Shown: positions 3,683 through 57,683 of the stretch, in pieces | Position numbering within the stretch: the stretch's first letter is position 1 | Layout of the letters: each line of letters begins with the position of its first letter | Assembly (NCBI GenBank): GCA_963793305.1 | Contig: CAWBZV010000003.1 | Location: forward strand, 544,001-608,000 | DNA length: 64,000 bases | Direction: 5' to 3' | From: an uncultured Gemmatimonadales bacterium | GTDB lineage: Bacteria > Gemmatimonadota > Gemmatimonadetes > Gemmatimonadales > Gemmatimonadaceae | The notes under the pieces: model-generated | Told to the model about the DNA's origin: nothing | Seen by the model: the letters and a program-made list of their open reading frames with translations, nothing else | Database searches by the model: none | Translations under genes and position numbers: made by a program

Positions 3683-4117
3683 ATGATGCGGAGTGTGCTC
3701 AAGCATTGGGCGCCGGTCGTCGTACTGATCGGCCTTGCCAATAGCGCTTTTTTCTGGTGGGCGCGGATAGATGACAAAATCTGGAAGGTCCGTCACACGA
3801 TCGGTGTGGTGATCATGGTGCCATCCTTCTTGCTGTGGGCCCTCGCTCGGCATCAGCTCGGCGCGTCGTTCGCCGTGCGACCCCAGGCCAGAGCGCTCGT
3901 GACACGCGGTCTCTATTCCAAGATCCGGAATCCGATCTACGTATTCGGCGAACTGCTCAATGTTGGCCTGTTCGTGTTCTTCGGAATGCCGTGGCTCTTC
4001 GTGGTTCTTCCTATCACGATCGCTGTACAAGTGCTCCGGGCCCGGATAGAAGCGCGCGTGCTGGACGCGGCGTTCGGCGACGCCTATCGCGCGTACCGGG
4101 CACGCACCTGGTTCTAA
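3683..4117 (+). CDS. Isoprenylcysteine carboxyl methyltransferase (ICMT/PEMT)-family membrane protein
   Basis: LVTRGLYSKIRNPIY and EARVL...FGDAYRAYRART motifs. Confidence 0.8.
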   Translation: MMRSVLKHWAPVVVLIGLANSAFFWWARIDDKIWKVRHTIGVVIMVPSFLLWALARHQLGASFAVRPQARALVTRGLYSKIRNPIYVFGELLNVGLFVFFGMPWLFVVLPITIAVQVLRARIEARVLDAAFGDAYRAYRARTWF

Positions 4118-6490: not shown

Positions 6491-8806
6491 TCAGTACCCC
6501 CAGCTCAGTCCCATGAGCACCGTCCGGGGCATGAGCGTCACTTGGCCCGCCAGGTTCTTATGATTGAAGATGTTGGCGAGGGTGACGAACGTAGAGAGCC
6601 GGCCCCGGGCCGGCCCTGTCTGCCACTGGTGAGCGAGTTGGAGATCGGCGCGCAAGTACGGTGGGAGCCGTGCCGCGTTGGCCCACGACGTCGTGAGATC
6701 GTGGTCGACCGCGCCCGGTCCGGTGATGAGATCATCATCACCGTCATGTCCGAGCGCCGTTCCGTCGACCCCCCCCGAGCGCTGCCCAAATCCTGCCCAG
6801 CCTGCGAGACGGACTTGGGTGAGGCGATCCACCGAAATGCCCAGGGCGGCCGATCCCGTCTGGCCAAGCTCCGACGTCGCGTGATAGCTCACGCCGCCGG
6901 CCGATTCGATCGTGCGCCCCGCGCCATAACCGGCTTGCCAGGAGAGGCGGCCATGCGTGCCGTTGAGCTGCGCGGCGAGTCCGTCGACGTGCGCCGACGC
7001 CCGCGCAAAGCTCGTGGCGGCGAACAGCGAGCGTTGCATGGGGTCGGGGACGGCCAGCCCGGAGAGCGCCCGGACGTAGCCATCGAATGAGAGGCGGGCT
7101 CCGGTGCCGAGCTGGGCGACGATGCCTGCGGTCCCCACGTCGCTCTGCGCGAGCGGCACGCCCCCGGTACCGGCGACGACAGGTAAGTCGACGCCGATCT
7201 CGGCCCCGAGTGGTGACTCTGCGTTGCGCAACGATTGCACCACTTGATGCGTGCGGGCGTATCCGACGGTCCCTATGAGCCCTGACAGCAGACGCAGCTC
7301 ACCATCGACTCTCGGCTCGAGGCGAGTCGTCAGTCCGAGTATTGCCAGACCGCGCACGCCGGTCGTGATGCGCCACGTGCTGTCGGCCGAACCCCAATGG
7401 CGCTCGGCGAACGTCGATACGATCGCCGGAGTTCCTACGAGGGCGAGCGGCGACCGGTTCAAGTCGGTCGTCAGTCCTGGGGAACCCGTCGTGGGGACCG
7501 CGGCATCCAACACCCGGTAACTGTCATTGAGTACTTCGAGCGACGCGCCCACGCGCACTGACGCCCAAGTCAACTGCGTGGTGAGCTCCGCCTGGCTCAC
7601 GCCGTCATCGAGACTGTGTCGCGTGCTGTCAGCCGCCGCGGGAACGGTCGTGCTGAACCGGGCGGCCGACACATGGGATTCCAGCTGGACCTGAGCGCCG
7701 AGGTGCTGGGTCCACACGAGACCAAGCGTGCCGGTGCCCCACGATATGTCGCTCGACGAGTGCGCATCAGACGAGGGACTGTCTGCGTAAGGCGAGGCGC
7801 GATCGCCGCTCGCGACGACGATGACTCGCACGGTCGTGGCACCGGTCGCTAGCTCGGTCGTTGCGACACCGTCGTTCCAGTGGTCGCGCAACGGTCCCGC
7901 ATCGTTCGCCAGCAGATCGTCGTTGCTGTGGCGAACCGCGATCCGGAACCCTCCCGTGGCATCGCCCAGCGCGAGCACATGGGCCCACGTTGCTCGTGTC
8001 GCGGCGGGACCGACAGACGCCGCGCCCGTCGAGCCGAGCACAGGCGGTGCGCGTGTCTCGACATCCAGGACGCCACCCAGTCGGTCGCCAAGGTTCGCGG
8101 GGATTGCGCCATCGTGGACGGTGACGCTGCCAACGGCATCAGGGGTGATGGCGCTCAGGGTTCCACTGCCGTGCACCGGACTCCACACCGGGAGGCCGTC
8201 GAGTCGGACCAAGAGTTGGTCTGATGTACCTCCGCGGTCCATCAGTGAGCCCGGCCAGTCGGGGCGTAGGGCGAGATGCGGATCCGCACTGAGCGTGCGC
8301 ATAATGTCCGGCTCTCCGGTCGACGCGAGCGAGAGTCCGGGGTCGCCGTGCCACGACCACGTATCGCTGTTCTCCCATCCGCCGCCGATCGGCGCCGGGT
8401 GCGCGGCGGTCGGCGATCCGCGCACGCGGACCGAGTCGAGCACGACCATCTGCGGTGATAACGCGATATCGACACGGAGCACGCCACCCGCGGGCACAGT
8501 CACCAGGACGGACATCGTGTCGTACCCGCCGCGCGTGACGCGCATCATGACGGTGCCAGGCGAGACACCGGTGAGTCGATAGCTACCCGCACTGTCCGAG
8601 TACACGGCGGTGTCCAATTGGGGCAGGTCCACGCGCGCGCCAGGGATCGCCGTCCCCAAAGCGCTGCTCCGCACGGCGCCGGCAATTATCGCGTCCCGCG
8701 TCGTCGTGTCACGAGTCATTGGGGATTGGGCCGCAACGGAGAGGGACACGCCGGATGCCGTTGCCAGCACGACGACTCGCAGGCAGCGCGAACTGGCGGC
8801 TGTCAC
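6491..8806 (-). CDS. TonB-dependent receptor-like protein with carboxypeptidase-regulatory-like domain (start uncertain)
   Basis: Signal-like segment, AIPGARVDLP...GSYRLTGV domain, plug-like LLVRLDGLPV, barrel C-terminus ANIFNHKN...PRTVLMGLSWGY. Confidence 0.78.
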   Translation of the reverse strand: MTAASSRCLRVVVLATASGVSLSVAAQSPMTRDTTTRDAIIAGAVRSSALGTAIPGARVDLPQLDTAVYSDSAGSYRLTGVSPGTVMMRVTRGGYDTMSVLVTVPAGGVLRVDIALSPQMVVLDSVRVRGSPTAAHPAPIGGGWENSDTWSWHGDPGLSLASTGEPDIMRTLSADPHLALRPDWPGSLMDRGGTSDQLLVRLDGLPVWSPVHGSGTLSAITPDAVGSVTVHDGAIPANLGDRLGGVLDVETRAPPVLGSTGAASVGPAATRATWAHVLALGDATGGFRIAVRHSNDDLLANDAGPLRDHWNDGVATTELATGATTVRVIVVASGDRASPYADSPSSDAHSSSDISWGTGTLGLVWTQHLGAQVQLESHVSAARFSTTVPAAADSTRHSLDDGVSQAELTTQLTWASVRVGASLEVLNDSYRVLDAAVPTTGSPGLTTDLNRSPLALVGTPAIVSTFAERHWGSADSTWRITTGVRGLAILGLTTRLEPRVDGELRLLSGLIGTVGYARTHQVVQSLRNAESPLGAEIGVDLPVVAGTGGVPLAQSDVGTAGIVAQLGTGARLSFDGYVRALSGLAVPDPMQRSLFAATSFARASAHVDGLAAQLNGTHGRLSWQAGYGAGRTIESAGGVSYHATSELGQTGSAALGISVDRLTQVRLAGWAGFGQRSGGVDGTALGHDGDDDLITGPGAVDHDLTTSWANAARLPPYLRADLQLAHQWQTGPARGRLSTFVTLANIFNHKNLAGQVTLMPRTVLMGLSWGY

Positions 8807-8836: not shown

Positions 8837-9589
8837 ATGATCCACGCTGCGCTCATTGTCTCGGTCGTCGCCAGTAATGTTCGGGTGGCACAGCGCCCCC
8901 TGGATGCTGCCATGCTCCAGGTGTCGACCGCAACTGCCGCGGATACGGTTCTCCCGTCGTCGATCGTCGTGGACCCGGATACCGAGCCCAACGGAACCGG
9001 CGTTCCGCCGGAGGGTACGGCGTCGACGGCCGGCCCTCGTGCCTCGCCATCGGGATTCAGGCGCGACGCACATGGGCCGTCGATGGCTGACACAATCCCG
9101 CCTCGATCGAAACGACCGCGAGCCATTGAGTATAGCGATTGGTACTACCGGCGCCTGACCATGCACCGCATTGCCAGCTACGCCGAACTCCCGCTGTTCG
9201 CCGGCGAGTACGTCCTGGGCGAGCGCTTGCTGCACTACACGCAATACGAGCGTGCGCCGTCCGGTCTCAAGACTGCACACGTCCTGGTCGCTGGCGGGCT
9301 GGGGACGCTGTTCGCGTTCAACACCGTGACGGGTGGTTGGAATCTGTGGGAGTCACGCAAGGACCCCGCCGGTCGCACCCGACGCATACTGCACACGGTG
9401 CTGATGCTCGCGGCCGACGGGGGTTTTTTCGCGACGGCGGCGGCAGCCAACGGTGGCGGCGAGCACCACGATCAACTGGGCAACCAGCCGTTCAGGCCGC
9501 CGAACAACCAGCTGCACCAGAGGCTGGCCGAAGTGTCGATGGGCATCGGGTTGGCGGGCACCGTCATGATGTGGGCGTGGAGGAACTGA
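8837..9589 (+). CDS. Hypothetical membrane protein, 4 TM helices each led by a His (possible b-type heme protein)
   Basis: LTMHRIASY, KTAHVLVAG, RILHTVLML and QLHQRLAEV precede hydrophobic helices; low-complexity N-terminus. Confidence 0.65.
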   Translation: MIHAALIVSVVASNVRVAQRPLDAAMLQVSTATAADTVLPSSIVVDPDTEPNGTGVPPEGTASTAGPRASPSGFRRDAHGPSMADTIPPRSKRPRAIEYSDWYYRRLTMHRIASYAELPLFAGEYVLGERLLHYTQYERAPSGLKTAHVLVAGGLGTLFAFNTVTGGWNLWESRKDPAGRTRRILHTVLMLAADGGFFATAAAANGGGEHHDQLGNQPFRPPNNQLHQRLAEVSMGIGLAGTVMMWAWRN

Positions 9590-10099
9590 GTGCATAGTGC
9601 CATTCAGGCCCTCGCACATATTTTCGCACCGTGGCAGTCGTTGTATAGCAACTCCAAGGTCGTTTCGGATGTTGTCACCTACACGCACCTCGCAGGATTG
9701 TTGTTTGGCGGCGGGTTCGCCGTGGCCGCTGATCGCGCCGCGCTGCGGTTGAGTCGCGGAGCTCCGGAGAACCGGCGTCAGTTGTTGGACCATCTCGCGG
9801 CGGTCCACCGTCCGGTTCTGTTCGGCCTTGGGGTCATGGTGGTGAGCGGCTTCCTGCTGTTCACGGCGGACGTCGAGACGTTCGCTGCGTCGCCCGTGTT
9901 CTGGACCAAGGCGACGCTGGTGGCGCTGCTCATCGGCAATGGCTACCGGTTGATGCGAACCGAGCGCGCGCTCCGGACAAGCTACCACCCCCAAAACGGC
10001 GACCGTCTGTGGCGTCGATTGCGGGGTACAGCCATTGCTAGCATGGCGCTGTGGGCGGCGGTGGTACTCGCCGGCACGGTGCTGAACAGTATCAGTTGA
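9590..10099 (+). CDS. Hypothetical 4-TM membrane protein
   Basis: Four hydrophobic segments (YTHLAGLLFGGG, VVSGFLLF, FWTKATLVALL, SMALWAAV); abuts the previous stop. Confidence 0.7.
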   Translation: MHSAIQALAHIFAPWQSLYSNSKVVSDVVTYTHLAGLLFGGGFAVAADRAALRLSRGAPENRRQLLDHLAAVHRPVLFGLGVMVVSGFLLFTADVETFAASPVFWTKATLVALLIGNGYRLMRTERALRTSYHPQNGDRLWRRLRGTAIASMALWAAVVLAGTVLNSIS

Positions 10100-47795: not shown

Positions 47796-49152
47796 CTAGC
47801 GACGCACCAGCGGCCGCCGTCCGCGCCGAAGCCGCGTGGCCAACGCACCAGCCGCGGCGTGATACTCGCCACGCCCGGCCGCGAGCCGCTGCGACAGCTC
47901 GCCAAGCCGCGCGACCGTCGCAACGAAGTCCGCGATCTCCGGCGGCACGTCGTCGGTCCGCGCCGCGAGCGGTACCGAGTCGCGCGGCGCGCCGCGCAGC
48001 GCGTCGAACGCCCGCCGCGCGAAACGCGTTAGCCCGTGCTTCTCGGCCAGCCGCGCCAGCCGCATGTACGCGTCGCGCGCCGCGTCCGCGCCGTCGAACG
48101 CCAGCCAGCCGTCGCCGAGCTCTTCGAGATAGATCGCGAGAAGTCGAGCGGGCAAAGGGATCTTGTCCAGCGTCGCGCGATGCTGGTCGAACGAGTCGCG
48201 ATGGTTATCCGCCGCCGCGAGCATCAGCAGGTTGATGCACGCCGTCCACCGAATGCTCCGCTCGCGCGCCGTCAAGAAGACCGTCTGGCATGCGCTCCGG
48301 GCCTGGTCGTGCAAGCCCATTCTATAGAATACGACGCCAATGTCGCCGAGGAGCCGGCTCTGCCCCTCGCGGGCAGCGGTGTCGCCCGTGCGGAGCCACA
48401 CAGAACGTCGCCTCCATCGCCCGCTCGTGCCAACGCAGCGCCTCCACGAAATCGCCGCGCTCGCGAGCCGCGTTCCCGCGCTCGTGCGCCGCGCGCGCGA
48501 TCAGGCACTGGTCCCCGAGTGACTCGGCGCTGGCGAGCACGGAGGTCGTCCACGACTCGGCGTCCTCGATGTTGCCGCGCATGCACGCGAGACTCGCACG
48601 CGCGATCTTGAGGTTGAGCGCCGGGCGCACCTCGCCGTAGCGAATCGCGCGCGCGATCCCGAGCTCGAACTCCGTGTCGGCGCCATCGAAATCGCCCGAC
48701 TCGCGGAGACAGTAGCCGAGGCGCAGATGAGCGGTCGCCAGGTCGAAACCCGGGCAGGATTCACCGCAGTCGACGATGCGACGGTAGACGGCGATCGCAA
48801 GATCGAAGTGCCCGCTCTTGTGCAACCGCTGCGCGTAGCCGACGAGCGCGATCAGCGTGCTCTCCGGTGGGATGAACCCCTGCAGCGTGTCGACAACGCC
48901 CGTGAGCGCCATCCGCATCAATGGCGACGGCACGCTCGCCACCGCGCGGCGGAGCATATCCATCTTCCGCACCCCCGGCCGCCGGCGCGGACTCCGCGGC
49001 GCGATGCAGGCGTCAGCGCACTGGAGCACCATCCGACCCGCGTGCAACGCATGCCACGTCGGGCTTCCCTTTCGCCCGCGACTGAGCGTGAGCGAGAAAA
49101 CCTCGTAGGGATCGAACGGCGCGGTCGCGGACAGTGGGGAAGTGGGGCCCAT
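47796..49152 (-). CDS. Tetratricopeptide-repeat protein; one-base frameshift at ~48404
   Basis: TPR-like helices (AHLRLGYCLRESGDFDGA, AAHERGNAARERGDFVEA, LLGDIGVVFYRMGLHDQA); a 1-base deletion joins ORFs 48322-49152 and 47796-48401. Confidence 0.75.
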
Positions 49153-49167
49153 GGGTGTGAGCCCGGA

Positions 49168-49281
49168 CTAGTAAGTGCCAGCGCCCGATGTGGCGCCGCC
49201 ACCCGAATCCGCGCGGACGACTCGAGGACAGGCGGCGCTCAGGATCAGGGCGAGCAGCGTGAGAAAAAGTACACGGTGCAT
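49168..49281 (-). CDS. 37-aa putative secreted peptide precursor MHRVLFLTLLALILSAACPRVVRA-DSGGGATSGAGTY
   Basis: Hand-translated (below the ORF-track cutoff). Basic N-terminus, hydrophobic core, VRA cleavage-like site; stop lies 15 nt before the TPR gene start. Confidence 0.65.
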   Translation of the reverse strand: MHRVLFLTLLALILSAACPRVVRADSGGGATSGAGTY

Positions 49282-49413
49282 ATGCGGTCAATATCGTGTC
49301 AGCGGTCGCGAAGCAACAGTCACAGTTTTTTGCCGTCCGCTCAAGCGAATCGCGTACCTGGCGAATGTTACATGGCGCGACTATATCGAGAGCGTCCCGA
49401 AGAGGAGACTGTC

Positions 49414-50482
49414 ATGAAGCGCTTGGCCGTAGCTCTCGTCGCCTTGCTCCCGACCGCCGCACGCGCCCAGGAATCGTCGCCGCCGGAAATCGCGTATCGC
49501 TCCGTGCCGGACTTCCTCCAGCTGCCCGCTGAACGTCTCCTTCGGCGAGGTCGCCGGCGTCGCGACCAACTCCAAAGGGCACATCTTCGTGTTCTCCCGC
49601 GGCAACACGACCGGCCCGGCCTATGGGGCCGCCGCGGCGCAGCTCTACGAATTTGGGGCGGACGGCAAATACATCCGCGAAATCGGCCACAATCTCTACG
49701 CGTGGTCGTTCGCGCACTCGGTGCGCATCGACAAGCAGGACGACATCTGGGTGGCCGACAAAGGGTCGGATATGGTGATCGAGTTCAACCCGGCCGGGCG
49801 CGTCGTGATGGTGTTCGGTCGCAAGCAGGAAGCGTCGGACGAAGGCACCGCACCGCTCAAGCACCCGACCCCGCCGCTGCCGCCCGTTGACGGGCTGTTC
49901 CGACAGGTGACCGATATGGCGTGGGATGCGGCCGGCAACATCTATATCAGCGACGGCTACATCAACTCCCGCATCGCGAAATTCGACAAGGACGGCAACT
50001 GGATCAAATCCTGGGGCGAGCCGGGGAGCGAGCCAGGTCAGTTCAACACGCCGCACAATATCGCGGTCGACGCCAATGGCAACATCTACGTGGCGGATCG
50101 CGGCAACCGCCGCATACAGGTCTTCGACGGCGACGGCAAATTCCTGCGACAGATCACCATCGACGTTCCCATCCGCCCCGACGCGCGGCCCGCCATCGGC
50201 AACAGGCCCACGCAGGCCACAGGCACCATGGCGCCCGGCGCGCCGTGGACAGTGTGCATCACCCCGCCGCCGAACCAGGTGCTGTTCACGTCCGATGCGT
50301 TCCCCGGGAGGATCTACAAGCTCAGTCTCGATGGAAAAGTGTTGGGCTGGCTCGGGGAGTCCGGCAAAACTCTCAAGAAGTTCGGGTGGATACACGCCCT
50401 CGCGTGTCCGTCGGAAAACGAGCTGTATGTCGCCGAGTTGCTGAACTGGCGCGTGCAGAAACTCATTCTGTCGAGACCGTAA
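49414..50482 (+). CDS. Secreted NHL-repeat protein (peptidyl-alpha-hydroxyglycine lyase-like); one-base frameshift at ~49532
   Basis: RBS GAGGAG, signal peptide, AHSVRIDKQDDIWVAD, YISDGYINSRI, FNTPHNIAVD, YVADRGNRRIQVFD. Confidence 0.9.
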
Positions 50483-50553
50483 CACCGTGTTGTTCAAAGC
50501 CGTGGGCTTCTGTGCTGTAGTATTCACTACCGTGGGGTCGCTAATGTCGGCGC

Positions 50554-50832
50554 GTGCCACCCCGGAAGCGGTCCGTCGGCGACCTCAAGCCACTCGGTAG
50601 CGTCTTTCGCGCCCTGCGCAAGAAAACAGGCTTGAGCCAGGAGCGTCTGGCACTCGACTACGATCTCGATCGCGCCGCGGTCAGCTCTCTCGAACGGGGC
50701 AAGACCAACATCACGTTCAGTCGCATGCGCGACACGCTAACCGCGCTGGGCGCTTCCTGGGAGACGTTCGGGCGCGCGATGGATCAGGAAGCCCCGCTCC
50801 CGCCCCGGAAATCGCTCCGCCGACGAAGATGA
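50554..50832 (+). CDS. XRE/Cro-C1 HTH regulator
   Basis: RALRKKTGLSQERLA...DRAAVSSLERGKTN; short palindrome GTAGT-ATTC-ACTAC at 50517-50530 upstream. Confidence 0.85.
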   Translation: MPPRKRSVGDLKPLGSVFRALRKKTGLSQERLALDYDLDRAAVSSLERGKTNITFSRMRDTLTALGASWETFGRAMDQEAPLPPRKSLRRRR

Positions 50833-50975
50833 CAGAGTGGACGGATCCGCGGCATAGAACAACACGCTGACGACGCATCAATGCGGCGAAGCACATCCGA
50901 CCACGCATTGTGTACGGCTCGTCGCTCTCCGCAAGGCACAATATCGTTCCGACTTCTCTCGCCCGGGGAGGGGCC

Positions 50976-51203
50976 GTGACCAAGTTCAAATTTCGTCGCT
51001 GTACTTTCGAGCAGCACACCATCGTCGATGACGAAGGCCGCGTGATCGGACACATCCGCGTCACGCCCAACGCCATCCTCTGGAAATCGCCCGGCACATC
51101 ATCCTGGTACGTCGTCCCGCTCGGCGTATTCGCGGAATACGCCAAGCGGAGCGGCAGTAAGTGGCGTGGCCGTGGCCGGTTCGTTATTGCACCGCCGCGG
51201 TGA
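50976..51203 (+). CDS. Small basic hypothetical protein
   Basis: RBS GGAGGGG, GTG start, 75 aa (HTIVDDEGRVIGHIRVTPNAILWK). Confidence 0.55.
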   Translation: MTKFKFRRCTFEQHTIVDDEGRVIGHIRVTPNAILWKSPGTSSWYVVPLGVFAEYAKRSGSKWRGRGRFVIAPPR

Positions 51204-51234
51204 CGGGAGGATGGTTCACGACCGTCACCGTGAT
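51184..51234 (-). repeat. Orphan copy of the last 16 codons + stop of the CocE/NonD gene (direct repeat of 54242-54292)
   Basis: Both encode [16 protein letters not shown]. 45/51 nt identical; the 6 differences are synonymous third positions; 26-nt perfect block. Confidence 0.95.
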
Positions 51235-51300
51235 GAGCTATACGTGGCCGAGTTGCTGAACTGGCGCGTGCAGAAGCTCGTGCTGCAGCCGTTACACTAA
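51235..51300 (+). repeat. Orphan copy of the 3' end of the NHL gene (direct repeat of 50420-50482)
   Basis: ELYVAELLNWRVQKLVLQPLH* versus ELYVAELLNWRVQKLILSRP*; 29-nt perfect block (51247-51275 = 50432-50460). Confidence 0.95.
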
Positions 51301-51338
51301 CCGCTTAGCGAAACGCCACCCCCGTGCGTCTACCGGGG

Positions 51339-52595
51339 ATGCGACATGCCCACACTCTCGCGACCCTCGCCCTGATCGGCTGTTCCGGCGGTAACACCAC
51401 CCCGACGCCGCCGGTCACCAAAACCATAGCCGGCATCGCCGTCACCGGCCAACCGGTCAAAGTCTTCGATCACAATACCGACCAACAGTCGCCGAACAAC
51501 ATCCCGGACGCGCAGACCACGGCGTGGAAAGAGGCTGACGGCACCGTCAACCTCATGATCGCCGCGTCCGATGCCTATCGGATGCGCGGGCCGGACTTCG
51601 CGCACCTCGTGATCGACCCGCACATGATCTATTCGTCCGACGCCAGCGCGGGCCAGATTCCCGAGAATCTCGACAACTACGCCCACTGGCTGATGGGCCC
51701 ATACTCCCTCGACGGCCAGACCTTCTACTCGATCACCCACAGCGAGTGGTACGCCTGCCTCCTCGACAACGACTGCTCGGCCAACGGCTACGTGTCACAA
51801 GGCAATAGCTGGGTCGCGAGCTCGAACGCGTTCGTGTCCCACGACGGCGGTGCCTCGTGGCAGCTCAACACCGCCGGCGGCACCCACATTGCGTTCGACC
51901 CGGGGTACCACTGGACCGGCACGCTCGCGTTCCAGGACACGATCTGGGCCTACGCCGACAATCACACCGGGACGTTCCAGCCGACCCGGGTCGTTCACGA
52001 AGGCTCGTACTTCTACTGCATCGCGTTCTACATCCACCGCGACTTCACCCAGATCAATCCGTCGCAGGGCGTCTACAGTGCGCCAGTCGATGCCACCGGC
52101 TACGTGCTCCTCCGCACGGCCGACATCACGAGCGCCGCTGGCTGGCAAGCGTGGACCGGCGGAAGCACGTTCCAGCCCGTGGCCAACGGCCAGTTCCAGA
52201 CGTTCTCGCCACTTGAGAACGGCTCGCCACTGAGCGCGGCGCCGCCACAGATCATTGACGACACGACCGCCAAGCAGTACATCCTGATCTTCACGCTCTT
52301 CGGCGGCAGCAACCCCGTGTACTATATGACGACGACGTCCCTCGCGAATCCGTCGTGGAGCGACGCCGCGACGATCAGCGGCACGGCGAGCCTCGTCACC
52401 GATCCCGCCGGCAATGTGGTCGGGTTCAATGACGGCAACTACACGTCGATCATCGACACGAGCTCTCCGGGATACAATTTCGAGTTTACGGGCGGGAGCC
52501 CGATGCTATTCTATAGCACGTTCCCGGCGAACTACGGCGGCGACAACATCGCGCGCGACCTCTATCGCGTCCAATTGTCGATCACGTACCGGTAG
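51339..52595 (+). CDS. Hypothetical lipoprotein, beta-rich (possible propeller glycoside-hydrolase-like fold)
   Basis: Lipobox LIGC, Asp-box-like SHDGGASW, strong coding bias. Confidence 0.7.
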   Translation: MRHAHTLATLALIGCSGGNTTPTPPVTKTIAGIAVTGQPVKVFDHNTDQQSPNNIPDAQTTAWKEADGTVNLMIAASDAYRMRGPDFAHLVIDPHMIYSSDASAGQIPENLDNYAHWLMGPYSLDGQTFYSITHSEWYACLLDNDCSANGYVSQGNSWVASSNAFVSHDGGASWQLNTAGGTHIAFDPGYHWTGTLAFQDTIWAYADNHTGTFQPTRVVHEGSYFYCIAFYIHRDFTQINPSQGVYSAPVDATGYVLLRTADITSAAGWQAWTGGSTFQPVANGQFQTFSPLENGSPLSAAPPQIIDDTTAKQYILIFTLFGGSNPVYYMTTTSLANPSWSDAATISGTASLVTDPAGNVVGFNDGNYTSIIDTSSPGYNFEFTGGSPMLFYSTFPANYGGDNIARDLYRVQLSITYR

Positions 52596-52661
52596 TCGGC
52601 GCGTGTAACAGATTCTGTATCACGACGTGCCGTGCCCCATTCTTGCAGGAGTGCCAACCCC

Positions 52662-53126
52662 ATGAAAAACATCCTTGGCATCTTCGCCACCTGCATCGGG
52701 CTCGCGGGAGTCGCCGCGACGGCGAGCGCCCAGCCGTTACCGGGTGCGCATCCGTATTACCTGCATGCCCTGACCGACCTTCGCGCCGCGCGATGGTTGC
52801 TCTACCATCAAAGCGGCGATGCGAAAGTGTACGCCGGCGAAGATGAGGGTATTCGCGAGATCGACGCTGCGATCGGCGAGATGAAGCGGGCGGCGATTGA
52901 TGACGGAAAAGATATCAACGATCATCCGCAGCTCGATGTGAACGACCACGGCAGCCGCCTGCTCAAGGCGATGGAGAACCTGAAGCAGGCGCACGCCGAC
53001 GCCGATCACGAAGAGGACAATCCGCAGCTGCAGGGGCTCAAGCACCGCATCATAGACCACATCGACAAGGCCCAGCACGCGGCGGGTGTAGCCCACCAGC
53101 AGTGGCTCGACGAGATGAAGAAATAA
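52662..53126 (+). CDS. Secreted His-rich helical hypothetical protein
   Basis: RBS AGGAG, signal peptide ending ASA, HPYYLHALTDLRAARWLL. Confidence 0.75.
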   Translation: MKNILGIFATCIGLAGVAATASAQPLPGAHPYYLHALTDLRAARWLLYHQSGDAKVYAGEDEGIREIDAAIGEMKRAAIDDGKDINDHPQLDVNDHGSRLLKAMENLKQAHADADHEEDNPQLQGLKHRIIDHIDKAQHAAGVAHQQWLDEMKK

Positions 53127-53209
53127 CGCGGTGCTCGCCCGCTGTGCTATTGTACCGCGCGGCCCCCAATTACCGTTTTCGACGCGCATGTTGCGTCGTG
53201 ACAAACGAG

Positions 53210-54205
53210 CTAACGCACGCGCAGCACCAGCTTTCCCACAATGTGCCCCTGCGCGAGGCGCTCATGCGCTTTCGCGGCGTCCGCTAGCGCATACTCGCCC
53301 GCGATCGGCACACGCACGCGCCCTTGCTCGATCGCGCGTGACAGATGCTCGAACTGCTTCACACCCGGCACGCCATCGTATGGCGTCGTCTCGATCCCGC
53401 GCCGCCGCTTGGGCACCGGGTCGATGCCATTGGGATACGCCAGACGCCCACCGGCGCGCAATGACTTGATGCAGAGCTCCAGCACCTCGCCACCAGCGAG
53501 CCCCAGTACCGCGTCGGCGCCGTCCGGCGCGAAGCGGTGGATCGCGGCGGCGAGGTCGCCCGAGTGCCCATTGACTGCTTCGTCCGCTCCCAGACTCTTC
53601 ACGAGCGCGACGCCGTCCTGGCCTGAGCCGATCGCCAGCACCCGCGCGCGGCGCAGCTTCGCGAACTGCACCGCGAGCGTGCCCAAGCCGCCCAATGCGC
53701 CGTATATGATCAGGGCCTCGTCGTGCTTCACATGCAAAGCGTCGTCGATGCCCTGAAGCGCCGTGAGCCCAGACGCCGGAGCCGCGCCAGCTTGTACCAT
53801 GTCCAGCGGCTTCGGCACCGCCGCCGCGTTGTCCGCGGGTACCGCGACATACTCGGCGTAGAATCCGCCCTTGGTGGTGTCCCACACGAACCCGTAGACC
53901 GGCTCGCCGAGTGTGAACCGGCGCACGCGCGAGCCCAACGCGGCTACTGTGCCGGACCCGTCCGTGCCAAGCACGAGCGGATAGCGCAATGGCTTCTCGG
54001 TCGGCGACCAGCCACCGCGAATGTCCGCGTCCCACTTGGCGACGCCAGCGGTATCGACCGCAATCAGAATCTCGTGCGCGTCGGGCACCGGAACCGGCAG
54101 CGAGTGCACCGAGAAAACCTCGGGGCCGCCGGCGCGGTCGATCGCGGCCGCGCGCATCGTCGCCGGAATGGCCGCGCGCGCTTGGGGAACGGTCTTCGTC
54201 ATCAT
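53210..54205 (-). CDS. NADP-dependent oxidoreductase (MDR/quinone-reductase-like)
   Basis: MRAAAI, LGTDGSGTV, GFYAEYV, GALGGLGTLAVQFAK, GHIVGKLVL. Confidence 0.92.
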   Translation of the reverse strand: MMTKTVPQARAAIPATMRAAAIDRAGGPEVFSVHSLPVPVPDAHEILIAVDTAGVAKWDADIRGGWSPTEKPLRYPLVLGTDGSGTVAALGSRVRRFTLGEPVYGFVWDTTKGGFYAEYVAVPADNAAAVPKPLDMVQAGAAPASGLTALQGIDDALHVKHDEALIIYGALGGLGTLAVQFAKLRRARVLAIGSGQDGVALVKSLGADEAVNGHSGDLAAAIHRFAPDGADAVLGLAGGEVLELCIKSLRAGGRLAYPNGIDPVPKRRRGIETTPYDGVPGVKQFEHLSRAIEQGRVRVPIAGEYALADAAKAHERLAQGHIVGKLVLRVR

Positions 54206-54241
54206 ACCGTTCGTCCTGCAATAAGCGCGCGCGGGACCAGC

Positions 54242-56168
54242 TTATTGCACGGCGGCCGTCACCGGTGGATGGTTCACGACCGTCACCGTGATCGACGACG
54301 GATACTGCTTCGAGTGATGTACGACATTGTGCGCCACGACTGGGTTCGTCTCGTCGTAGTTGTTGCCACCCGTGTTCAAGTTCCGGTCGAACCGAGGGAA
54401 GTTCGAGCTCGACACCTCGATCCGAAGCTTGTGCCCCGTGTCGAAGTAATCACTCGTGCTCATGGGCCCGAGCGCGACCTTGTAGACCTTGCCGGGCTCC
54501 ATCCACACTTTCTTGTCGTATCCCTCACGATAGCGAACGCGCTGGATCGTCTCGTCCAGGTTATAGGCGCGACCGTCCGGATAGACGTTCGATCAGCTTC
54601 ACCGTGAAATCCGTGTCCTTGCGGTCAGATGACACGTACAGGTTCACCGAGATCGGACCCGAGAGCTCCGTCGGCTTCGTGAACGCGTCGGTCGTGTACA
54701 CCAACACATCCGGACGCGTCTCCATCTTCCGCTGATCATACGAGCCCGCCAACGTCCCCGGCTGACAACAGACATTCCCGCCGTAGCTCGGTACCGGGTT
54801 CATGGGATCGTAGGTGAACGTCTCGGGTTTGTCGGCGCCAGCGGTCTTCGGCGACAGAGCGCCACTCGCATTCAAATAAAACGTCATCGGCTCCGCGCCC
54901 TTGGGCGGCCACGTATCCGACGTCTGCCACTTGTTGAGCCCCATCGTGTAGTAGCGCACGTGCGGCAACGTATCCAGCAAATGGTTGTCCGCGCCGTTCA
55001 AGAAATGGTCGAACCACGAGTACACGAGCGAGTCGTACCCGTAGCGCGCGTCGCCCATCCAACGCTCGCCCACCACCGTCGAATCCGTCGCGCGCTTGTA
55101 GGCGCAGTGACCGACCGGCGCGATCACCACGTACTGATTCTTGGCGATCTCCGGAGACGCGGTCTTTCGGACGTGATTGAACAGCTCCAGGTTCGGGCTG
55201 ATCGACACGTCGTACCACGACATGAACCACAAACTCGGCACCTTGAACGGCATGTCGTCGTGATACAACCCGCCCCGATACCACGCCGAATCGTTCGGCG
55301 TCCGCTGAATCATGTCGCCGCCCGTCGCGATCCCCTTGACCGAGTCCGCGAAAATCCCCGGCGGTCCATCGATCGCCTTGAAGATGTCCTGCTCCGGCAG
55401 ATGCTTGAACGCTTCCGGCCAATCCACCCTCGGCGCGTGCGGCGCGAGGTCGTAATACCGCGACTCCTCCTCGAGCTGCTGCGACGTCATGCCCGACCGG
55501 AACGCCGGACGCCCCGGCGTCTGCTCGCCGTACAACCAATCAATAAAGAGCATCTGCACCGCGCCGCCACGATACCAGTTGCCCTGCTCATAGAAGGGCC
55601 CCACCCGACCGACACCGGCGCCAAACCCCTGCGGCACCATCGCCGCATGACCCGGCGCACCCAACGCCGCCACCCCCATCTGCCACTCGGCCGTCGATGA
55701 ACACCCCAACGTGCCGAGCTTGCCGTTGGACCACGCCTGCGTCGTGATCCACTGAATCGCATCGTAGCCGTCCGTGCGCGGCGGCCCCAAAATATCCCAC
55801 GTGCCCTCGCTCCAGAACTTGCCACGCTCGTTCTGCACGACATACGCGTAGCCGCGCTTGACCGCATCCAAGGCCGCCGTCGCGTCGCGCGGCACGCCAT
55901 ACTGCACGTCGTACCAGTTGAAGTTGTACGGCGTGCGGACGAAAATCGTCGCGTATTTTCCGTCGCCCTTGGGACGGTAGACATCGGTCGACAGGTGAAC
56001 GCCGTCCCGCATCGGAACCATCAGCTTATGCTCAACAGTCGCGATCGACTCGAGATCCGCGTACGTCTTCGAACGCTGCGCGAGCTGCTCGGGCGTCGGT
56101 GCAGCGGGTTGGGCAGCAGCCTGAACCGCGGTGGCGAGCAGGGCAGCGGAAAGGAACAGGTGGCGCAC
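54242..56168 (-). CDS. CocE/NonD-family hydrolase; one-base frameshift at ~54588
   Basis: [33 protein letters not shown]; corrected [29 protein letters not shown]. Confidence 0.92.
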
Positions 56169-56252
56169 GGTAACTCCCTAATGAAATCGCCTTGAGCTCG
56201 ATGTCGACAACCTGTATACAACCAGACAAATACGCGACAACTCTCGGGCGCG

Positions 56253-57683
56253 TTGACCGAAGCACACTGTCCATCGGTGAGCCGGACTGAACGCTCCGCC
56301 CAGGTGCTCGCCGTGGCGATCCTCGCTCTCGCCGCGGCCGGCTCCCTCACGGTGCTCATCTATGCCATCGGGCACATTCCTCCGACCCGTGGCCTCTATG
56401 TCGTGCTCTACGATGTCACCCCCACGATCGTGCTGCTCGCCGCTGTGGCCGGCCTCGTCGCGCGCGGCGCAACGCGACTCGGGGTCGCGAGCTGTGTCGT
56501 CGCCGCGGGCCTCGCGTGTTACGTCGCCGAAGCGACGCTCGCGATTCGAGAGGGATCGTACCTCCCGTACGTGCCCGCGATGCGGACTCCCCGACCGCCA
56601 TGGCTCTATGGGCCGTGGGACGCGCGCTCGCGCCTCGCCGTCATCCTGGATCTGCGCGCCCGCGGCGTTGACGCCTACCCGGCCCCGAATCGACTGGAGC
56701 AGATGGCCGTGTACCGCGCCGAGGGTGCGGGGCTGTCCCTCTATCCGCTCGGTGGCATCGCGAATGTGCCGACCGTGTTCTGCAACGAGAGCGGCGCGTT
56801 CGCGAACTACGCGAGCGACGGCCGTGGGTTCAACAATCCGCCGAGCGCCTGGCGAGACGGAGCAGCCGACGTGGTGGTGATCGGCGACTCCTTCGCGCAC
56901 GGCGCGTGCGTGGACACATCGGTGACGATCGCCAGCGATATCCGACGGACGTACCCCGCCACCGTGACGCTCGGCATGGCTGGGAGCGGACCACTGCACG
57001 AGCTCGCGACGCTCCGCGAATACGCGACCACTCTCCGCCCTCGTGTCGTGGTCTGGCTCTACTTTTCGGAAAACGACTTCTCGGATTTCGAGGAAGAGCG
57101 CTCGGACGGCATGCTCGCTCGGTATCGCGAGCGCACGTTTCGACAGGGCTTGCTCTCCCGGCAACCGGAGATCGACTCGGTCCTGCGAGTGCACTTCGAC
57201 GGCACGATCGCCCGACAGACCACGGCGGCGCACCACCCATGGCTGGAGAATGCCAAGGGATTTCTCCTGCTCCAGCACGTTCGCCGGCATGCGTTCCCTC
57301 TCCTGGTTGTGCACGGCGCCGTGCCGTCCGACCTTCCGTGCTCGGCCGATCGATTCAGTCAGGTCGTCGACGTGATCGCGAACGCGCAAGCCGAGGCGGC
57401 AACGTGGGGAGGGAAATTCTATTTCGTGTATCTCGCGGAATGGGGACGCGCCGACCTGATAGACCATTGCGCACCCCGACGCGAGGCCTTGCTGAGGGCA
57501 CTCGACCGGCGCGGCGTGCCATTGATCGATCTCGAAGCGCGCTTCGCCATCGCCGACTCAGCGCAGCGGCTACTCTGGCGGCCTCACGCCGACGCGCACT
57601 ACACGCCGGCCGGATACGCCGTTGCCGCTCAGACCATCCTGGACCGCCTCGAGGCCGATCGCGCCGTGTTGACGGCCAAGTAG
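56253..57683 (+). CDS. Membrane-anchored SGNH-like (AlgX/AlgJ-like) protein
   Basis: N-terminal TM helices, IGDSFAHG, ENDF, DAHYTPAGY. Confidence 0.7.
   Translation: MTEAHCPSVSRTERSAQVLAVAILALAAAGSLTVLIYAIGHIPPTRGLYVVLYDVTPTIVLLAAVAGLVARGATRLGVASCVVAAGLACYVAEATLAIREGSYLPYVPAMRTPRPPWLYGPWDARSRLAVILDLRARGVDAYPAPNRLEQMAVYRAEGAGLSLYPLGGIANVPTVFCNESGAFANYASDGRGFNNPPSAWRDGAADVVVIGDSFAHGACVDTSVTIASDIRRTYPATVTLGMAGSGPLHELATLREYATTLRPRVVVWLYFSENDFSDFEEERSDGMLARYRERTFRQGLLSRQPEIDSVLRVHFDGTIARQTTAAHHPWLENAKGFLLLQHVRRHAFPLLVVHGAVPSDLPCSADRFSQVVDVIANAQAEAATWGGKFYFVYLAEWGRADLIDHCAPRREALLRALDRRGVPLIDLEARFAIADSAQRLLWRPHADAHYTPAGYAVAAQTILDRLEADRAVLTAK

Follow-up and report, generated by a model that had tools for sequence, protein, structure and literature searches.

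Fused spare 3' ends of two convergent genes as the probable scar of an additive recombination between two alleles of one intergenic slot in a Gemmatimonadales genome

INTRODUCTION

The closest described counterparts of the locus analysed here are scars of homology-facilitated illegitimate recombination (HFIR) and of 3'-end displacement. HFIR was reported by de Vries and Wackernagel (2002), Prudhomme et al. (2002) and Meier and Wackernagel (2003), as cited in PMC5361080 and PMC2884548. It is a proposed mechanism for dimorphic loci that lie between backbone genes (PMC2884548), and for the displaced ends of type VI secretion system (T6SS) effectors and for rhs tips, where the old 3' parts are retained (PMC5361080). 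Here we describe a locus in a 64,000-nt stretch of DNA (the window; positions 544,001 to 608,000 of contig CAWBZV010000003.1, assembly GCA_963793305.1) from an uncultured Gemmatimonadales bacterium. In this locus, spare 3' ends of two convergent genes, an NHL-repeat beta-propeller gene (NHL gene) and a CocE/NonD hydrolase gene (CocE gene), are fused to each other between two different cargo cassettes, X and Y (Table 1). With the live 3' ends of the NHL and CocE genes denoted A and B, and the spare ones A' and B', the order is A-X-B'A'-Y-B. Our preferred reading, to which we give a probability of roughly 0.65, is that this structure is a genuine inherited scar of one additive recombination event that stacked two alleles of the same slot, and not a device.

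The proposed event resembles HFIR, as presented in the relevant parts of these sources, in combining one homologous anchor (the flanking gene) with one illegitimate joint, in needing no site-specific recombinase and in having a diverged donor. Two features set it apart. HFIR comes from experiments in naturally competent species, whereas the present event is read from its scar, in a genome assembly in which ComEC was not found. In addition, the incoming piece here would be the homologous slot of a relative, the far end of which is itself a gene end (B'), hence the fused pair. A second described counterpart is the displacement of C-terminal parts, with orphan modules, in rhs, cdiA and T6SS effector-immunity loci (Jackson 2009, Poole 2011 and Koskiniemi 2014, cited in Kirchberger 2017, PMC5361080). 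As in the cases outlined there, a new 3' end and its cargo stand behind a conserved gene body, the old end is retained downstream, and recombination between the live gene and the handle left behind can follow later. Unlike in those cases, none of the ORFs (open reading frames) here contains a toxin, immunity, Rhs, PAAR or VgrG domain, and there are no secretion genes. The displaced tip is 66 nt long, domain-free and fused to the tip of the convergent gene, and it is not part of an array.

Dimorphic loci are replacement-type variable segments between conserved genes (Touzain et al. 2010, PMC2884548). As far as that article describes them, they share with the present locus unrelated alternatives at the same position between conserved genes, exchanged through the flanks. 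They differ in that both alternatives are found here in one chromosome, head to tail, which corresponds to an additive intermediate.

Genomic islands of the tyrosine-recombinase type use 3' ends of tRNA or protein genes as integration sites. As in such islands, the cargo here is bracketed by a direct repeat of a gene 3' end, and the gene is kept intact. Unlike in such islands, there is no integrase on the contig, the repeats are those of diverged alleles instead of an identical att core, and the length of the spare ends varies. An integron consists of the IntI integrase, attI and cassettes bounded by attC. The present locus differs from it, with no tyrosine recombinase on the contig and no attC-like element among the repeat families. 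Programmed cassette switches (shufflons and invertible or phase-variable loci) have a dedicated recombinase and alternative forms that coexist in one population. At the present locus, no recombinase was found in the cargo, no PF00589 match on the contig, and no alternative joint in the contigs of four runs, from which rare variants are dropped. The composite probably belongs with the scars of HFIR and 3'-end displacement, and is notable for the fused ends of both convergent flanking genes.

RESULTS AND DISCUSSION

Spare ends of both convergent genes are fused without a spacer

The window lies on contig C3 (1.57 Mb) of a 5.72-Mb genome assembled in 26 contigs (92% complete, 5% contamination). 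Within 49000-56500, the two longest families of direct repeats were A/A' and B'/B. A (50420-50470) and A' (51235-51285), as well as B' (51184-51234) and B (54242-54292), align over 51 nt with 88% identity, each pair differing at 6 of the 51 positions. The longest identical runs are 29 nt for A/A' and 26 nt for B/B'. The B/B' homology begins exactly at the stop codon of the CocE gene. The A/A' homology extends, with small indels, to the stop region of the NHL gene, which brings the full A' to 66 nt. The last base of B' (51234) is directly followed by the first base of A' (51235), i.e., the spacer between the two spare ends is zero, and the small ORF of cassette X overlaps B' by 20 nt. Judged by these boundaries, the variable part corresponds exactly to the interval that separates the NHL stop codon from the CocE stop codon. 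No further copy of the fused ends was found in the own genome. A sequence-only reading of the window had described the spare ends as interleaved in the order given above. This order, the positions and the spacer-free fusion were all reproduced by repeat search and alignment, as was the span of A' (51235-51300), whose homology reaches the NHL stop region.

The same reading had named a chimeric assembly as the explanation that would undo it. Evidence on strains was taken from the assembled contigs of four sequencing runs (X1-X4, labels unrelated to cassette X); contigs drop rare variants. A contig of run X1 (7,888 nt, depth ~10) is colinear with 49000-53138, with 41 substitutions and one gap. 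After 41 other letters, it resumes at 54249 and reaches 55955. It spans A, X, the fused B' and A', Y1 and Y2, and extends >2 kb to each side of the junction 51234/51235. The strain of run X1 is not that of the window, since it is ~1-2% diverged and does not have the oxidoreductase gene that precedes B. Logan contigs are built from 31-letter words. Neither of the longest identical runs (29 and 26 nt) reaches this word length, and the repeats should therefore not have collapsed in the X1 assembly. Moreover, no sequence stretch is common to both sides of the join that could have misled an assembler. Because an independent contig crosses the junction in a different strain, the composite is inherited and a chimera is rejected. 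A 393-nt contig of run X3, which comes from another study, covers the boundary between the NHL stop and X with one mismatch.

The spare ends differ from the live ends as coding alleles do

All six differences between B and B' are at synonymous third codon positions, and both copies encode the same 16 residues followed by a stop codon. Between A and A', five of the six differences are at third positions, and the sixth replaces Ile with Val. Taken together, 11 of the 12 differences in the two 51-nt cores affect third positions (binomial P=4.7e-5). Decay in place would hit all codon positions. The copies therefore diverged in separate genomes, each as coding sequence.

A homologue search with the NHL protein of the window provided a live counterpart of A'. 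The C-terminus of P0002, a protein 96% identical to the window protein, is ELYVAELLNWRVQKLVLQPLH, which is exactly the tail encoded by A'. The tail of P0001, the closest homologue (98%), differs, and the tails are variable among the 14 relatives that were read. The bias towards third positions and the tail of P0002, together with the lack of another copy in the own genome, indicate that the spare ends come from another, diverged live allele. On this comparison of sequences, they represent a second allele of this gene pair and not a local duplication. When the NHL protein was compared with P0001 and P0002 for mosaicism, the matches to the two interleaved, with no clear crossover point.

Proposed origin of the composite

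We regard the gap between the convergent stop codons of the NHL and CocE genes as a variable slot, with cargo that differs by lineage. The donor may have been a relative, ~12% diverged at silent sites, that carried the same slot with other cargo, and its allele would have been added to the resident allele without replacing it. A linear donor piece, consisting of the NHL gene body, A, X and the first 51 nt of the donor CocE end, would have paired homologously inside the recipient NHL gene. An illegitimate joint would have linked its far end to the recipient chromosome, 66 nt short of the NHL stop codon. The old NHL tip (A') would have been displaced downstream by this joint, and the donor CocE tip (B') trapped against it. 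The product A-X-B'A'-Y-B would require one homologous exchange and one illegitimate joint, and we consider HFIR, with the logic of 3'-end displacement, the likeliest route. The same product could arise by a mirror event, with Y incoming and anchored in the CocE gene, or by a Campbell-type single crossover with a circularised fragment. The sequences to the left of A and to the right of B have nothing in common with the junction partner, and the joint is precise.

We infer the order of events, the pathway (homologous recombination followed by end-joining) and X as the incomer from the product. For X as the incomer, a weak hint is given by run X4, which has Y-like contigs (90-95% identity) but almost no cover over X, and by the lower GC content at third codon positions (GC3) of the X genes (0.74-0.76, compared to 0.83-0.87 for the flanks and Y1). 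With regard to the machinery, Ku is encoded at C3:468680-469225. The genome-wide recombinase search was made for tyrosine recombinases (PF00589) and not for serine recombinases; it gave seven matches, all of them outside contig C3. Pfam searches detected no recombinase or transposase domain in the cargo or in the neighbours within ~10 kb, which encode DinB, GDSL lipases, a TPR protein, a GH3 glycosidase, a methyltransferase, an arginase and a dienelactone hydrolase. The earlier remark that no integrase is visible nearby is in agreement with these searches.

Several points weigh against the proposed origin. Neither parental form (X-only or Y-only) was seen with its cargo, in scans in which near relatives were possibly not covered. 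The NHL gene with the A' tail (P0002) is on an 11,054-nt contig and is not placed beside Y1, and no cluster of Y1 homologues lists such a contig. HFIR, the mirror event and the integration of a circle are indistinguishable from the product. HFIR was described for natural transformation, which is without support here, as ComEC was not found in the 92% complete genome. Finally, low-level ongoing switching is possible, as contigs are blind to rare forms.

The slot in related genomes

CocE loci were taken from 11 related genomes, one of which (G012) is flagged as unpublished. Only in G005 is an NHL gene present at the CocE 3' end within the flank that was read; in G001, the contig stops inside the CocE gene. 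The slot of G005 consists of the NHL gene, ~590 bp with an unrelated 147-aa ORF on the minus strand, and the CocE gene, and so holds a third cargo. The NHL and CocE genes of G005 are 81%-82% identical to those of the window at the nucleotide level. The sequence-only reading had interpreted the locus as a cointegrate of two alleles of one intergenic slot. This part of it is supported by the silent differences, the tail of P0002 and the third cargo of G005. The G005 locus is present twice, on the overlapping short contigs C5 (L021) and C286 (L010) of that genome, which are 97% identical. The G005 assembly was apparently interrupted at the slot by strain heterogeneity.

An NHL orthologue (E <= 1e-30) was found in one of the five genomes of the genus (G001-G005). 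Yet the NHL protein is 79%-85% identical in metagenome-assembled genomes labelled as several phyla, mostly Acidobacteriota (loci L111-L190). Such a scattered distribution is consistent with horizontal transfer of the NHL gene itself, or with binning errors. Among 106 NHL loci with 1.2 kb on both sides, 611 locus pairs share upstream sequence, and 235 of these share downstream sequence as well. Variability is somewhat higher on the 3' side of the NHL gene than on its 5' side.

A presence/absence polymorphism of the oxidoreductase gene is located right at the CocE stop codon. In contigs of runs X1 and X2, 53138 is joined to 54249, with 41 other letters between and no oxidoreductase gene. In run X4, joints were found from 53131 to 54242 and from 53144 to 54243, along with a contig of ~90% identity that retains the gene. 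The NHL-CocE interval was thus found to hold other cargo in relatives, as had been anticipated, both in the ~590 bp of G005 and in the oxidoreductase polymorphism of runs X1, X2 and X4. Of the cassette contents given in the sequence-only reading, Y1 and Y2 remain in Y, whereas the oxidoreductase gene, which had been counted as part of Y, is a separate indel that has no counterpart in sister strains. A short TATTG motif is present at both edges of this indel. A third, degenerate CocE end at 53147-53165 was considered and rejected as no better than chance, since it scored 16-20 in local alignment and a score of 16 is reached by 41% of background windows; TATTG-type microhomology remains. One contig of run X4 joins 51526 to 52529, omitting 1,002 nt inside Y1, and represents either a Y1 deletion variant in a relative with 90%-95% identity or a different organism.

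The collection scans covered metagenomes with the NHL gene (80 loci) and genomes with Y1 and the NHL gene (80 NHL loci). The scans with the NHL gene returned only relatives at <=85% identity, and near relatives were possibly not covered. None of the 80 metagenome loci, to which the screen for CocE, X and Y was limited, carried any of them beside the NHL gene. The Y1 scan of the genome collection returned no relative; here too, near relatives were possibly not covered.

Alternative explanations

The locus could be the remnant of a site-specific integrative element that inserted at the NHL 3' end, brought a replacement end with it and no longer has its integrase, which we regard as improbable. 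Direct repeats of a gene 3' end around cargo are the classical signature of such elements, one pair of tRNA fragments of this kind is present in the genome (C5:316345/321531), and spare NHL ends recur in two metagenome loci (L102 and L105). However, neither the 1.57-Mb contig nor the cargo encodes a tyrosine recombinase. The spare NHL ends in the three loci are 66, 110 and 357 nt long, with no fixed att core. These differing lengths speak for recombination inside a conserved anchor rather than at a fixed att site. The repeats at the present locus differ at silent sites, like alleles, and contain no identical core. Moreover, the far end of X, which is only 701 bp long, is a homologous CocE end and not the end of an element.

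The sequence-only reading had gone further and proposed an integrase-free either/or swap, in which the fused ends serve as standing handles, X or Y is dropped as a circle, and a circle can re-enter at either end. The topology is correct, as recombination between A and A' would leave Y, recombination between B' and B would leave X, and either deletion restores a single-cargo allele with both genes intact. The slot does carry alternative cargo in relatives, and the spare ends retain 26-29 nt of perfect identity. Nevertheless, a working system of this kind is quite unlikely. Recombined products (joints of 50470 to 51285 and of 51234 to 54292) were sought in the contigs of the four runs and none was seen, which is weak evidence, since rare variants are dropped. 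The composite is unchanged in a strain diverged by ~1%. The handles are 51 nt long with 88% identity, and the fused pair is the sole one among the 252 local repeat pairs of the genome. Domain searches assigned neither a replication nor a transfer function to a would-be circle of 815 bp or 3 kb. Among the 160 other NHL loci, the 80 from metagenomes have no CocE gene beside the NHL gene, and no fused pair is seen, second NHL pieces being confined to L102 and L105. For RecA recombination in Escherichia coli, a lower limit of ~30 bp is cited in PMC2884548. The identical runs of 29 and 26 nt are near this limit, which also counts against a working switch. Later loss of X or Y through these short, diverged handles is possible but should be rare.

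A local tandem duplication of the interval from the NHL end to the CocE end, followed by divergence and differential replacement of its content, would yield the exact order A..B'A'..B by one illegitimate joint. It is about as hard to sustain as a working swap. X and Y share no similarity in the repeat search. In addition, non-coding spare ends should decay everywhere, whereas 11 of the 12 changes are at third positions and the B' peptide is intact, and A' equals the tail of a live allele elsewhere (P0002).

That contigs of two co-occurring strains were mis-joined or concatenated at 51234/51235 is very unlikely: the assembly has 26 contigs, 5% contamination and visible 1-nt indel errors, and G005 holds two 97% variants of the same locus on separate contigs, but the X1 contig of a different strain traverses the junction with >2 kb on each side, and the sides of the join share no misleading stretch.

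Recurrence and significance of spare 3' ends

A self-comparison of the whole genome in 24-kb windows returned 252 local direct-repeat pairs, for which the gene context was chosen by GC3. The scan for further fused 3'-end pairs, suggested together with the swap, found only the present one in the 5.7-Mb genome. Three other geometric matches to a fused pair were rejected, as they lie within internally repetitive giant ORFs at ~70% identity. Single spare 3' ends occur at least four times elsewhere in the genome, in the orientation expected for displacement (Table 1). Spare NHL ends behind an intact NHL gene were found at 2 of the 153 other loci with downstream sequence. These two loci (L102 and L105) are on unrelated metagenome contigs, and third-position differences account for 13 of 18 in L102 and 30 of 51 in L105. 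The 404-aa product encoded between the repeats of L105 is a predicted membrane protein, read by eye as a putative PP2C/SpoIIE-type phosphatase.

The fused spare ends make the event at the present locus legible, as they would identify the incoming DNA as the same slot of a related genome and the cargo as added and not swapped. Additive intermediates are rarely caught, and this one would supply the missing step between the replacement of small genomic islets through their conserved flanks and a net gene gain that uses no enzymes of mobile elements. The cargo itself has no evident special importance and comprises a small regulator, an ORFan, two family-less genes, the products of which look exported, and an oxidoreductase.

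More tentatively, such integrase-free 'allele stacking' might serve this soil lineage, and others, as a regular means of gaining genes, although we rate this generalisation well below the reading of the single locus. Conserved genes at variable slots would act as homologous anchors, and end-joining, for which Ku is present, would close the other side. If this is true, spare 3' ends are datable scars that name the donor allele. The patchy but highly conserved NHL gene would have been used as an anchor repeatedly, in different lineages, with three independent spare ends (66, 110 and 357 nt). An intermediate with stacked alleles would in time be reduced to one cargo or the other through its spare handles, a slow and passive form of the proposed swap. 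Should spare 3' ends turn out to be common in soil genomes from long reads, integrase-free acquisitions could be counted and dated by this simple signature.

Genes and minor features of the locus

The coordinates of all features are collected in Table 1. The gene calls of the sequence-only reading (NHL, XRE, oxidoreductase and CocE) hold in profile searches.

Table 1. Features of the locus, and spare 3' ends elsewhere in the genome and in two metagenome contigs. Positions without a contig or locus label are those of the window; paired positions give the two copies.
Feature	Position	Strand	Evidence or content
NHL-repeat beta-propeller gene, live copy	49415..50482	+	Pfam NHL and DUF5128 propeller
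A, live NHL 3' end, duplicated handle	50420..50482	+	51-nt repeat, 88%; encoded tail ELYVAELLNWRVQKLILSRP, then stop
Cassette X	50483..51183	+	XRE/HTH_3 regulator 50554-50832 and small ORF 50976-51203
B', spare CocE 3' end from its stop codon	51184..51234	-	51-nt repeat, 88%
A', spare NHL 3' end, spacer-free fusion to B'	51235..51300	+	Repeat search and alignment; encodes ELYVAELLNWRVQKLVLQPLH, then stop
Cassette Y core	51324..53126	+	Y1 51324-52595 (423 aa), Y2 52632-53126 (164 aa)
Separate 1.1-kb indel with zinc alcohol dehydrogenase (ADH)/quinone oxidoreductase gene (53210-54205)	53139..54248	-	Pfam ADH_N, ADH_zinc_N
B, live CocE 3' end, duplicated handle	54242..54292	-	51-nt repeat partner of B'
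CocE/NonD hydrolase gene, live copy	54242..56168	-	TIGR00976 222.8 bits (cut-off 66.3); Peptidase_S15, PepX_C
Spare FtsX permease end	C6:62055/62481
Spare 3' end downstream of intact gene	C5:1030041/1028254
Spare DoxX gene end	C5:1197344/1205056		7.5-kb cargo: propeller-phosphoesterase, HlyD, ABC ATPase, two FtsX permeases; no recombinase
Spare FkbM methyltransferase end	C3:811971/807137		Cargo including IS110-family transposase
tRNA-fragment pair, classical island kind	C5:316345/321531
L102 spare NHL end	3714-3832 / 3993-4110		110 nt, 86%, ~170 nt between
L105 spare NHL end	7519-7897 / 9389-9767		357 nt, 88.5%, 404-aa gene between

The GC content of the window is 65%. The NHL gene starts with ATG at 49415 and encodes a signal-like N-terminus, as read off the translation; its homologue P0001 (356 aa) is colinear with it. 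The XRE regulator of cassette X matches Pfam HTH_3 at 8.6e-9. The small ORF of X matched no family in Pfam, NCBIfam or PADLOC searches and had no match in 60 genomes of the family, and X is single-copy within its own genome. Y1 and Y2 likewise gave no Pfam, NCBIfam or PADLOC match. Y1 has 117 homologues at E <= 1e-5, the best of which is 95% identical. The terms lipoprotein and secreted protein, applied earlier to Y1 and Y2, are putative and based on the N-terminal sequences as read.

An inverted repeat of 23 nt (83% complementary; 50483-50505/50847-50869) brackets the XRE gene and begins directly after the NHL stop codon; its length is matched by chance pairs in the same repeat list. The predicted RNA fold of the fused ends was no better than that of shuffles (z = -1.5). 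A scan for terminators and promoters returned two terminator-like sites, compared to 2.2 expected, and no promoters, and suggests no functional element.

In this assembly, 1-nt frameshifts are present in the NHL gene (at 49532) and in the CocE gene (at 54588). The extra base at 49532 is absent from the contigs of runs X1, X2 and X4, and that at 54588 from the contigs of runs X1 and X4. The CocE orthologue of G005 is a single open frame. The GH3 glycosidase gene downstream (57.7-59.8 kb) is also broken across several frames. The frameshifts in the NHL, CocE and GH3 genes look like assembly indel errors rather than pseudogenes.

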